A stretch of DNA of 46,604 nt, from IMG/VR virus record IMGVR_UViG_3300025646_005550, positions 1 to 46,604 of that record, one strand, 5' to 3'. The position numbers were made by a program, and so were the translations under genes. Position 1 is the stretch's first letter. The number at the start of each line of letters is the position of its first letter. The stretch comes from a virus (Duplodnaviria; Caudoviricetes). Below, in pieces: positions 20,051 to 46,546 of the stretch. Under the pieces are notes generated by a model. That model saw only the letters and a list, made by a program, of their open reading frames with translations. It did not search any database and had not been told where the DNA came from.

Positions 20051-20123
20051 TGGAGAATAGCGGACTCGAACCGCTGACATCCTGCTTGCAAAGCAGGCGC
20101 TCTACCAACTGAGCTAATTCCCC
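20051..20123 (-). tRNA. tRNA-Ala(TGC)
   Basis: GGGGAATTAGCTCAG...CCTGC-TT-TGC-AA-GCAGG...GTTCGAG; G3-U70. Confidence 0.95.
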
Positions 20124-25324: not shown

Positions 25325-25437
25325 AAAGTAGTAAGACCATCAGGGAAATGGTGGAGTTACTATGCTCCCCGCACCCTCAGCGGGGATATGAGAGACGTGA
25401 TTTATACACCCTATAGGTCTCGGTTTGGGGTGTTTGT
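25325..25437 (-). ncRNA. structured psbA leader, PhotoRC-II-like
   Basis: Pairings ACACCC/GGGTGT, GAGAC/GTCTC, TCCCCGC/GCGGGGA, ACCAT/ATGGT; lies 5' of phage psbA. Confidence 0.7.
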
Positions 25438-25478
25438 CAATGTTACATGAGATTAAAATCTCTTAACATTTGTTTACC

Positions 25479-38483: not shown

Positions 38484-38512
38484 ATTATACCAATTATAAT
38501 GTGAAATTGCAA
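38484..38512 (-). promoter_or_regulatory. sigma70-type promoter for the glycan cluster
   Basis: TTGCAA-17-TATAAT. Confidence 0.7.
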
Positions 38513-39130
38513 GAGACCTTGAAAAATACAAACAAAGTATTTCATTTTGATGGAGAGTATTTCAGTAAGTCGTATCAAATTATATCTGAGTTAGATCGAC
38601 TATCTCTCATAAAAGAATCCGAACAGTATCTGGAAACTCATAGGAAAATTGAAGAGTTACATCCACCAATAATGGCTGAAAATTTTTTTGATGATAAAAT
38701 TTTAGAGAAGGAATGTTGGAAAAATTTAACTGAAAAAGTAACTTTAGAGGCAAACAATTATAGTAAATTACATCTGGGTATTGATATAAAGTTTGAATCT
38801 TGTTGGATAAACAAGGTAGGGAACTACACAGATGTTGACATAAAAAATACTTTATATTTTGATGAAGATGTTCAATCATATACAGATAATCACTACCATT
38901 CTCATCATGAGAATCAATTAATTGGTTGCATTTTTTATTTACAAAACCCTAGTGAAAAATATGGAACTCTAATAAGGACTGAGAAAGGATCTCTTGTCCT
39001 CGATGGAACAGAAAATTCATTAACTATTTTTGATCCAAGATTGTATCACACTGCACTTGTACCTAATTCAGAAGTAACTTCAAAATATCCAAGATATGTG
39101 ATCTTAATGTCTTTTGTATCTTCATACTAA
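38501..39130 (+). CDS. 2OG-Fe(II) oxygenase-like protein; only convincing plus-strand gene
   Basis: SCWIN, HSH, IFYLQNP, distal LYH and Arg; start codon uncertain. Confidence 0.7.
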   Translation: MKLQETLKNTNKVFHFDGEYFSKSYQIISELDRLSLIKESEQYLETHRKIEELHPPIMAENFFDDKILEKECWKNLTEKVTLEANNYSKLHLGIDIKFESCWINKVGNYTDVDIKNTLYFDEDVQSYTDNHYHSHHENQLIGCIFYLQNPSEKYGTLIRTEKGSLVLDGTENSLTIFDPRLYHTALVPNSEVTSKYPRYVILMSFVSSY

Positions 39131-39154
39131 AAAAGGTGGGATCTCTCCCACCTT
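39129..39154 (-). terminator. intrinsic terminator
   Basis: GGTGGGA-gaga-TCCCACC plus T run, abutting the stop of the convergent gene. Confidence 0.85.
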
Positions 39155-39160
39155 CAAAGT

Positions 39161-39303
39161 TCAGGCTCGCCACTTGTTTTGAGTACGAGAAAACAAGAAA
39201 CTCGGCGGGGTTAACCCCATCCGCACCAGGGCACGATTAACGTCTGTCCGAGACGGGCATATTGGGGATGACTCCACCACCTAGTTTTACTTAACTAGGA
39301 AAA
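39161..39303 (-). ncRNA. wcaG/manA-type cyanophage structured RNA
   Basis: Hairpins with repeated UGGYG motifs (GUGGUGG, UGGUGCGG, GUGGCGAG); upstream of a WcaG-family epimerase. Confidence 0.7.
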
Positions 39304-39514
39304 GTTGGATTAGTTTTGGTATCTCAATAGCTGCATAAAAAGCACACAAAAAGAGAATATCCCAGAACTTATATTTGATAGCAAAGGGAACAACAAAAAT
39401 GTTTCCAATGCATTTAACAAACAATCCAATTTTCATATCTCCCCAAAGCAGGAAAAAATATCCCGATAAGAGAAGAAGATTGCCAATGTATCTGAATACA
39501 TTAGATTTTGTCAT
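39287..39514 (-). CDS. small multi-TM membrane protein
   Basis: ORF track; about three hydrophobic segments. Confidence 0.65.
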   Translation of the reverse strand: MTKSNVFRYIGNLLLLSGYFFLLWGDMKIGLFVKCIGNIFVVPFAIKYKFWDILFLCAFYAAIEIPKLIQLFLVK

Positions 39515-39540
39515 AAGGGGTTTGCTCCCGACCAGTGCTG

Positions 39541-39804
39541 TTATAGACCATCCGTGTCTTCATCATCGTCCCTTATATAACAAGGAACGCGATCCGGATC
39601 TAACCATTTCGCATATTCAATGTCTTCCATTGCAGTAGTGCATTGTAGACCATTATCAAAAAGATAAATGTCATTCCAACGTTTGGTGTAATGATCTTTC
39701 TTTTGCATTCTATAATCAGGCATACCATTTAATTCAATGATACCCTTTTGAACAAACCTATATCCTTCTCGTTCGAAAAGAACTTTAGGAAGTGTTTCAA
39801 TCAC
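39541..39804 (-). CDS. hypothetical protein
   Basis: ORF track, 87 aa. Confidence 0.75.
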   Translation of the reverse strand: MIETLPKVLFEREGYRFVQKGIIELNGMPDYRMQKKDHYTKRWNDIYLFDNGLQCTTAMEDIEYAKWLDPDRVPCYIRDDDEDTDGL

Positions 39805-40022
39805 GATACCAGAGCTCCTTCAGCTTCAAGATCTGCATAGATATAATCAATCAACATCTCATAATCATCCAGAGGATCTCCAGAGAAAATTACACCATTA
39901 GATTCATAAAACTTACGAACTTTTTTGAAGAGTTTCGGATTTTTTACATCCAGATAAGATTCTCCGTTCGCAGCAGACTTCAGAGTTTGAATGTCTTTTT
40001 TGAATTTATCAGTGAGTGACAT
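39801..40022 (-). CDS. hypothetical protein
   Basis: ORF track, 73 aa. Confidence 0.75.
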   Translation of the reverse strand: MSLTDKFKKDIQTLKSAANGESYLDVKNPKLFKKVRKFYESNGVIFSGDPLDDYEMLIDYIYADLEAEGALVS

Positions 40023-40046
40023 TTGTTTGAATTTGTTTACCTTGTT

Positions 40047-40075
40047 ATTATAGGGGATTGACTTGGAGAAGTCAA
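40047..40075 (-). promoter_or_regulatory. sigma70-type promoter
   Basis: TTGACT-17-TATAAT followed by AACAAGGTA. Confidence 0.8.
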
Positions 40076-40101
40076 TACGGACAGTTCGGTTTCTGTCCTA
40101 G

Positions 40102-40264: not shown

Positions 40265-40293
40265 ATTATAGAAGACTTGGAACTCCTTGTCAA
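40265..40293 (-). promoter_or_regulatory. consensus sigma70 promoter for the tRNA pair
   Basis: TTGACA-17-TATAAT. Confidence 0.85.
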
Positions 40294-40460
40294 GAGGCTT
40301 CGTTATTTAACTCTGTGTATATGCGTATGAGTTCGTCATCTGCAGGAACCATCACCGCTGTACTCGATCCGTTAGTTATACCTATTCGTTCTCCACTTTC
40401 AACTCTACCAATCATTTCATCCCAACGTTGTTGAAACTCTTCCACTGTGTAAACTTGCAT
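40290..40460 (-). CDS. Phd/YefM-like small protein (56 aa)
   Basis: MQVYTVEEFQQRWDEMIGRVESGERIGITNGSSTAVMVPADDELIRIYTELNNEAS. Confidence 0.65.
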   Translation of the reverse strand: MQVYTVEEFQQRWDEMIGRVESGERIGITNGSSTAVMVPADDELIRIYTELNNEAS

Positions 40461-40477: not shown

Positions 40478-40480
40478 AAG

Positions 40481-40554
40481 TCGGAATGATAGGATTCGAA
40501 CCTACGGCCACTCGCTCCCAAAGCGAGTGCTCTACCAAACTGAGCTACATTCCG
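40481..40554 (-). tRNA. tRNA-Pro(TGG)
   Basis: Cloverleaf; CTCGC-TT-TGG-GA-GCGAG. Confidence 0.95.
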
Positions 40555-46116: not shown

Positions 46117-46117
46117 G

Positions 46118-46199
46118 TGTCGATGAAAGGACTTGAACCTTCATGGATTGCTCCACTGGAACCTAAACCCAGCGCGTATACCAATTCCGCCACATCGAC
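46118..46199 (-). tRNA. tRNA-Leu(TAG)
   Basis: Long variable arm; CTGGG-TT-TAG-GT-TCCAG. Confidence 0.95.
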
Positions 46200-46378: not shown

Positions 46379-46464
46379 ATGATGGAGTAAACGTAATACA
46401 TCTCATAAGGATATAACAGAGGTTTACCCTCTATCACTTTTATATATGGAGAATAAATCTCCAA

Positions 46465-46538
<74 letters not shown>

Positions 46539-46546
46539 ATAAGACA

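Follow-up and report, generated by a model that had tools for sequence, protein, structure and literature searches.

Background

The wcaG motif (RF01761) was described in 2010 as a riboswitch candidate, a cis element of the 5' regions of exopolysaccharide and high-light genes, and the available part of that source does not mention pairing to tRNA (Weinberg et al. 2010, PMC2864571). Another structured cyanophage RNA, manA (RF01745), is described as forming cage structures (bioRxiv 10.64898/2026.07.01.735769) and lies near wcaG in phage S-CREM1 (PMC9964418), as far as the available portions of these two texts go. Two further bodies of work, likewise available in part, bear on the locus considered here. 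In T-box riboswitches a bulge pairs with the NCCA end of a tRNA and a helix stacks on that end (PMC7583486), and the tRNA genes of T4-like cyanophages offset low-GC codon use in high-GC hosts (PMC3152331).

The array described below shares with wcaG its setting in T4-like cyanophages, and two of its four modules, numbers 3 and 4, score above the cut-off of the wcaG model. That model is in effect a two-module slice of a four-module set, of which module 3 here bears another 5' fold, and where wcaG has been treated as a cis element, the array carries tails complementary to tRNA. As in the T-box, UGG-N is offered to the NCCA end of tRNA beside a helix able to stack on A76; unlike the T-box, the array matches neither Stem I nor its specifier, no terminator/antiterminator switch was found, specificity comes from 4-10 extra pairs into the acceptor and T stems, and four specificities share one RNA. 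The primer-binding sites of retroviruses and LTR elements are also antisense to the mature tRNA 3' end, and invade the acceptor stem with the aid of a chaperone. The array differs from them in its pairing of 8-14 nt, in its four different tRNAs, and in the lack of reverse transcriptase, PF00078 being found in none of five array-bearing genomes.

The RNA motif is already catalogued, as what is here an extended wcaG array, and the function proposed has no counterpart in the literature found. Searches for pairing between wcaG and tRNA, and for phage antisense RNA against tRNA acceptor ends, found neither, in a coverage that is thin for subscription papers and for the supplement narrative on wcaG in PMC2864571.

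Genomic setting and layout of the array

The window, meaning the whole 46.6-kb stretch of DNA analysed, is a linear virus record with psbA, psbD, gnd, 11 tRNAs and a PhotoRC-II RNA that lies upstream of psbA (25352-25445, minus strand, 82.7 bits). It belongs to a T4-like cyanophage, and its best-matching relatives at the array locus, among them S-SRM01 and S-SZBM1, are T4-like phages of Synechococcus. Synechococcus UW140 (G001), a Cyanobium MAG (G002) and Synechococcus PH41509 (G003) served as stand-ins for the host; host genomes were collected with a psbA query, a gnd query having yielded no cyanobacteria.

On the minus strand the order of elements is promoter-like site, ORF73, ORF87, module 1, ORF75, modules 2, 3 and 4, and terminator. 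A sigma70-type promoter-like site (40047-40075, 11/12 consensus) is the predicted start of a transcript that comprises ORF73, ORF87 and the array. ORF73 (39801-40022, phrog_552) is a conserved cyanomyophage gene of unknown function, and ORF87 (39541-39804, phrog_481) is likewise conserved in cyanomyophages; both families are present also in phages that have no array. The last codons of ORF87 build the hairpin of module 1, which overlaps the ORF87 stop codon (TAA, 39541-39543). Module 1 (39517-39559) is of type A, with a covarying 4-bp hairpin at 39545-39559, UGG at 39534 and a C-run at 39517-39520. It is followed by ORF75 (39287-39514, phrog_2318, with DUF6552 as a lead), which encodes a conserved hydrophobic three-helix protein, and whose last codons and stop (TAA, 39287-39289) are overlapped by module 2 (39264-39299; type B stem 39280-39299, UGG at 39279, C-run 39264-39267). 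Module 3 (39204-39255) has a type A hairpin at 39241-39255, UGG at 39228, a tail at 39215-39228 and, downstream of that tail, a masking hairpin and strand at 39204-39214. Module 4 (39162-39203) is of type B, an H-type pseudoknot at 39173-39203 with UGG at 39172 and a tail at 39162-39172, and an intrinsic terminator-like hairpin with a U-tract (39126-39155) closes the array. The first-pass annotation had listed the same succession, a type A module, a 75-aa ORF, then B, A, B and a terminator, and all of these elements lie on the minus strand close to where it had put them. It had also assigned two overlapped stop codons to the outer modules; two stops are indeed overlapped, but by modules 1 and 2 rather than by the first and the last.

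Several features adjoin the array. Directly upstream of a tRNA-Ile/Met pair and the array operon is a gene for a Phd-like antitoxin (phrog_375, 40290-40460, minus strand), and no toxin was seen next to it. The phage tRNA-Ile (40178-40250) has a UAU anticodon, which is rare in bacteria, and is common in relatives of the phage (34 distinct sequences). On the other side, a 209-aa ORF on the opposite strand (38501-39130, plus strand) lies between the array terminator and an epimerase gene, and so separates wcaG from the sugar gene. Among the ORF75 loci listed it occurs also in L008 and L039; it has weak PHROG matches only, and an HxH...H pattern that we take to be reminiscent of 2OG-Fe(II) oxygenases.

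Among RNA-library runs, 21 contain small shares of this stretch (0.05-0.11 of words), and contigs from six show the sequence of relatives spanning it from ORF73 to the array, with joints that skip ORF75. Because the runs were chosen using this stretch, they are uninformative on level, strand and ends and do not count as evidence of transcription. Transcription of the array probably occurs as part of the ORF73-ORF87 mRNA, of which it would be the 3' section, ending at its own terminator.

Module folds and the wcaG family

The repeated modules are real, as had been claimed: both folds covary among relatives, and for neither did any of 500 shuffles match the paired and two-sided values. In the type A stem, pairing is complete (100%) across 33 distinct sequences, among which there are 24 two-sided changes; the alignment comprises 33 of 40 candidates, the window included, and omits six out-of-register long-loop forms and one duplicate. 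Type B modules fold as an H-type pseudoknot of 3+6 bp, which is 97.6% paired with 56 two-sided changes and with covariation in both helices, in 28 sequences picked by tail alone (28 of 39 contexts were in register). Because isolated window modules mostly fold no better than shuffled sequence (folding z 0.23, -2.57, 0.47 and -0.13), support for the folds rests on covariation. An exact repeat search did not recover the modules, since the repeats are structural. What is invariant across modules is the UGG and the A-rich linkers.

The two folds are less uniform than their first description, in which module B was UUUC followed by a stem. The stem stands, but the first B module of the window begins UUUUCC, and it is without the 3-bp knot stem in most relatives; that stem occurs in 16 of 98 B modules with an Ala tail versus 97 of 110 with an Arg tail. 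For type A, a pseudoknot between a YGG in the loop and CUG at the start of the tail is compatible with 33/33 sequences and shows zero two-sided changes, so that this putative knot is unproven. Nucleotides 39204-39208, downstream of the Leu tail of module 3, can alternatively pair with 39168-39172 in the Arg tail of module 4; this pairing may couple modules 3 and 4, which are usual neighbours and are the pair modelled by Rfam.

Searches with the Rfam covariance models do not explain the whole span. The wcaG match (39159-39257, minus strand) scores 59 bits, the cut-off being 42; it takes in modules 3 and 4 only and leaves modules 1 and 2 (39264-39559) uncovered, for which no meaningful Rfam match was obtained at E<=10. 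The model's first hairpin misfits the window because module 3 has there a type A fold, whereas in most relatives that module is of type B; of the two UUUC-stem-UGGYG units, the second fits, with a covarying knot, and the first is replaced by the type A hairpin. The first-pass annotation was thus right that the array extends beyond a single wcaG unit, and its mention of manA found no support, manA having no match at gathering in the window nor at E<=10 in 38900-40100. The T-box families likewise have no match in the window, and no Rfam family besides wcaG matches at the array. The Rfam wcaG seed itself already includes tails of Pro, Ala, Leu and Arg type.

The four-module set

The tails, by which modules are classed, recur as a fixed set. 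Four modules are present in 125 of 197 distinct module-bearing loci, and 125/125 of these carry one each of Pro, Ala, Leu and Arg; a class is repeated in only 1 of the 197. These classes were set by analyst-defined patterns, 120 loci (L388-L507) were picked by their Leu tail, and the loci are related by descent, so that the counts are not independent events. Order is less constrained than content: Pro-Ala-Leu-Arg in 101 loci, Ala-Pro-Leu-Arg in 16, Pro-Leu-Ala-Arg in 6 and Arg-Ala-Pro-Leu in 2 (n=125). The A and B folds also interchange under the same tail, in the case of the Ala and Leu tails. Modules can persist apart, as in phage Syn33, which has a single Arg module at the locus (L004 2080-2135), and in S-SCSM1, where a Pro module lies about 2 kb from an Ala-Arg pair (L006 1700-1760).

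The genes between modules come and go. Of the 125 four-module loci, 71 have a called member of the ORF75 family and the other 54 have none, and the module joints also hold other small genes; ORF75 is optional cargo. It has no PADLOC, Pfam or NCBIfam match, and its model, three helices at a pLDDT of 78, has no PDB fold match at E<=0.001. The model of ORF87 (pLDDT 46) was too poor for a fold search, and an atlas search placed it in unnamed viral clusters only.

Complementarity of the tails to tRNA 3' ends

Each module tail consists of UGG plus 5-11 nt and is the reverse complement of the 3' end of a mature host tRNA. In the window, the Pro tail of module 1 makes 9 Watson-Crick pairs with Pro-CGG, or 10 with Pro-GGG if a 1-nt bulge is admitted; the Ala tail of module 2 makes 11 pairs with Ala-GGC, one of them G.U; the Leu tail of module 3 makes 14/14 Watson-Crick pairs with Leu-CAG and 12 with Leu-GAG; and the Arg tail of module 4 makes 10 of 11 pairs, with one mismatch, with each of Arg-ACG and Arg-CCG. 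In all four tails UGGN can pair with the NCCA of the tRNA, and the discriminator fits the cognate family.

Jointly, the four window tails form 42 of 48 Watson-Crick pairs, a figure reached by 0 of 5000 shuffled tRNA libraries; with G.U allowed, 10 of 5000 libraries reach the observed value. Taken singly the tails are of unequal weight: shuffled tails reach the observed duplex energy 0 times per 1000 for Leu, 22 for Ala, 44 for Arg and 133 for Pro, so that only the Leu tail is strong, Ala and Arg are marginal and Pro is not significant. The best duplex partner of the Ala tail is Ile-GAT. Across the window and loci L001-L166 (L007-L166 were obtained via flanking proteins), with sites called by structure alone, at least 8 contiguous Watson-Crick pairs to a host tRNA end are found at 200 of 253 B sites versus 110 of 6192 other TGG sites, and at 98 of 271 A sites, for which the caller was loose and let false sites in. 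The commonest length of a Watson-Crick run is 8 nt in Ala and Arg tails, 9 in Pro tails and 13-15 in Leu tails, an 8-nt run being NCCA plus four acceptor pairs. A looser tail pattern run on 16 phages matched nearly everywhere and was hence uninformative; of five such sites that were read, three in array-negative phages and one in S-SCSM1 held no module, and the fifth was the S-SCSM1 array.

The Leu end is present in 115 of 121 host-family genomes, and 59 of 61 genomes have one or both of the Arg ends (Arg-ACG, Arg-CCG). Two sequences account for 141 of 159 Arg tails. Of 4096 possible sequences, 16 come within one mismatch of each of the two host Arg tRNAs, and both tails belong to these 16; since neither of these common tails has a perfect genomic partner in any of 121 genomes, each is read as a hybrid with two targets. 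In the tails an A stands opposite U70 of tRNA-Ala and U71 of tRNA-Arg, and the tails run on into the complement of the T stem, which identifies them as antisense to the tRNA 3' strand and not as copies of the 5' strand. Nearly all of the host tRNA genes examined lack an encoded CCA; together with the A opposite U70 and U71, this indicates that the partner is the mature tRNA rather than a DNA relic.

The phage's own tRNAs for Leu, Arg and Pro fit the tails more poorly. In the window the acceptor ends of tRNA-Leu(UAG) (46117-46199, minus strand) and tRNA-Arg(UCU) (46464-46539, minus strand) are mismatched to the Leu and Arg tails, and tRNA-Pro(UGG) (40480-40554, minus strand) fits the Pro tail less well than host Pro tRNAs do, although many phage Pro-UGG ends match 7-9 nt. 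Phage tRNA-Ala(UGC) (20051-20123, minus strand) agrees with the Ala tail over its first 8 nt and is not clearly spared. In the Rfam seed, the tail of one row (JCVI_SCAF_1101668710796, L530/L531) fits the acceptor end of host tmRNA over 13 nt, and modules may on this reading be retargeted to tmRNA; no tail of this kind occurs in the array loci examined. Judged by these complementarities, specific host tRNA 3' ends are with high probability the partners of the array.

Codon usage and distribution among phages

The four amino acids are those that the host uses in excess. Self-trained gene calls from G001 and G002, 200 kb of each, were set against the window and against 240 kb of S-SRM01. In 4/4 host-phage pairings the top four host/phage amino-acid ratios are those of Ala, Arg, Leu and Pro (1/C(20,4)=2e-4), and GCC and CUG show the largest host codon excess. 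By excess host load the seven matched isoacceptors stand above the remaining 33 (Mann-Whitney p=5e-4); among all 40 they fall in the top 15 for the window and in the top 12 for S-SRM01. The match is not complete: Val-CAC, Gly-GCC and Leu-UAG have a high host excess too, yet are untargeted, and the phage still uses GCU, CUU, CCU and CGU, which the targeted host tRNAs can read, at 13-27 per 1000.

In a non-random sample of 18 phages, wcaG was found in none of nine isolated on Prochlorococcus versus seven of nine Synechococcus phages (Fisher p=0.002; two positives lie below the Rfam cut-off), the Synechococcus phages without it being S-SSM7 and ACG-2014d. By blastn, 0 of 80 matching records are named for Prochlorococcus, as against 24 of 461 for the neighbouring ORF87. 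When four low-GC host-family genomes are compared with phage P-HM1, the excess of Ala and Pro is gone (about 1.0-1.15 or less), and that of Leu stays high via other codons. The array thus shares the host-phage codon gap and the Synechococcus-phage bias reported, in the available part of PMC3152331, for cyanomyophage tRNAs, with the difference that there the phage adds tRNAs, and the array would remove those of the host.

Alternative explanations

The main rivals to an inhibitor acting in trans are a sensor in cis and a buffer or scavenger. If the modules were T-box-like sensors, uncharged Pro, Ala, Leu or Arg tRNA would switch the translation, coupling or stability of the small genes that they overlap. 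A stop codon does lie at most 45 nt upstream of the UGG in most Pro modules (123 of 162) and in most Ala modules of type B (103 of 128), a start codon follows within 40 nt of 77 of 162 Pro modules, the marginal binding energies given below would suit a reversible switch, and the T-box precedent for NCCA pairing with a stacked helix was noted above (PMC7583486, available in part). A start codon rarely follows Leu (3 of 162) or Arg (15 of 175) modules, however, the cargo genes vary or are missing where the four-tail set is kept, no T-box family matches, and the array terminates, with the antisense 209-aa ORF and a separate promoter preceding the epimerase in the window; on balance a cis sensor is unlikely. 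The same termination bears on the original proposal for wcaG, a metabolite riboswitch for downstream sugar or high-light genes. Its listing as a riboswitch candidate, in the part of PMC2864571 available, and the frequency of epimerase genes downstream speak for it, but the 5' leader arrangement is absent from the window for the reasons just given, the Arg module has a terminator-like element after it in 137 of 160 cases and a new promoter-like site within 100 nt in 47 of 160, and module order permutes. Given those terminators and the intervening antisense ORF, a switch for the epimerase is very improbable. The terminator stem downstream of the Arg module often includes the -35 hexamer of the next promoter (L010, L012, L021 and others).

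A buffer or scavenger would bind uncharged host tRNAs, or the 3' halves of cleaved ones, that are in surplus, and so blunt the stringent response or speed recycling with no active shut-off. The targeted families are indeed in surplus relative to phage demand, 3' pieces that lack the 5' strand are bound in the models with energies of -8 to -18 kcal/mol and with the cognate family first, and depletion of host tRNA during phage infection has been reported (PMC10264068, available in part); the C-rich strands downstream of the tails fit the tRNA 5' strand, which 3' fragments do not have, and we hold this reading to be rather unlikely. The tails could also be sites at which a tRNA primes reverse transcription, or what is left of past integration into tRNA genes. 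They open with UGG right after a stem, as retroelement primer-binding sites do, and genes come and go between modules, but besides the lack of reverse transcriptase in the five array-bearing genomes searched, a relic at the DNA level would be without UGG where CCA is unencoded, and none of 121 genomes has a tRNA that matches the hybrid Arg tails, which leaves this the least probable reading of all. The first-pass annotation had favoured a multivalent RNA that binds protein or is processed, or else an antitoxin RNA acting on the 75-aa membrane ORF, for which any match to tRNA would be incidental. The invariant UGG and A-rich linkers, the repeated folds and the conserved, hydrophobic ORF75 accord with such a role. 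Against it, the tails differ among modules as tRNA ends differ, ORF75 is missing from the calls at 54 complete arrays and matches no toxin-antitoxin or family database searched (PADLOC, Pfam, NCBIfam), and the GGA loops supposed to bind a protein partner vary to GGG, GGU and CAG, with CsrA (PF02599) found in neither the four host genomes nor S-SRM01; this role is quite improbable. A CsrA/Rsm sponge RNA was rejected on the same two grounds, the variable GGA loops and PF02599 in 0 of 5 genomes. What survives of that interpretation is a multivalent modular RNA beyond one wcaG unit, without the GGA-loop partner, the antitoxin or manA, and 'sponge-like' may be the right idea for the array.

A proposed mechanism

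The folds, the complementarity, the one-of-each set, the match to amino acids and codons favoured by the host and the poorer fit of the phage's own Leu, Arg and Pro tRNAs are observed, and suggest, with about even chances, that the array acts in trans and takes host tRNA-Pro, -Ala, -Leu and -Arg out of use. Loss of these host tRNAs would slow GC-rich host mRNAs more than AT-rich phage mRNAs. In a possible course of events, UGG-N would capture a free NCCA end, most likely that of an uncharged tRNA, and the knot helix would stack on A76, as in the T-box. The tail would then exchange acceptor-stem pairs, no fewer than the first 3-4 of them, and the C-rich strand downstream of the tail would take the freed tRNA 5' end, a reciprocal exchange that would yield a four-way junction. 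The G3.U70 pair of tRNA-Ala is a synthetase identity element, and exchange of the acceptor stem would hide such elements. The clamp might either hold the tRNA or expose it to nucleases, and strand exchange and identity masking would probably need a protein or nuclease for completion.

The downstream strands speak for this scheme. The C-run after the Ala and Pro tails fits the G-rich 5' strand of the tRNA better than it fits the tail: a C stands opposite A7 of the tail in 127 of 131 Ala modules, none of which has a perfect self-hairpin partner, and of the 30 Pro modules that have A or T at position 8, 27 keep the CCC run. The pattern could also be due to a weak, bulged self-hairpin.

Energetically the exchange is marginal. 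In a reciprocal-exchange junction model the cognate family comes first for 7/7 modules, at a net energy of -4.2 to +0.5 kcal/mol, and phage tRNA-Ala(UGC) fits as well as host Ala tRNAs. Free cofolding of window modules with an intact acceptor and T minihelix, by nearest-neighbour energies, gives -2.5 to -6.2 kcal/mol with no isoacceptor specificity, the top partner of the Leu module among intact minihelices being tRNA-Met, and the strong, cognate-first binding predicted above for 3' pieces arises only without the tRNA 5' strand. All of these models exclude the knot, coaxial stacking and proteins.

Implications

The array may, tentatively and at somewhat less than even chances, be a programmable RNA clamp, in which a pseudoknot, a UGG toehold and acceptor-stem strand exchange inactivate, or mark for decay, the host tRNAs that read GC-rich Ala, Arg, Leu and Pro codons, and so give codon-selective shut-off in high-GC Synechococcus. 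For a motif that entered the literature in 2010 as a riboswitch candidate, the comparison proposes the exact RNA partners. Codon-selective host shut-off, if it takes place, would be the counterpart of the tRNAs that low-GC cyanomyophages bring in. Should the array act in trans, a virus would rewire translation by RNA alone in abundant aquatic phage-host systems, and the array would supply the missing half of the story of how low-GC phages bring tRNAs into high-GC hosts.
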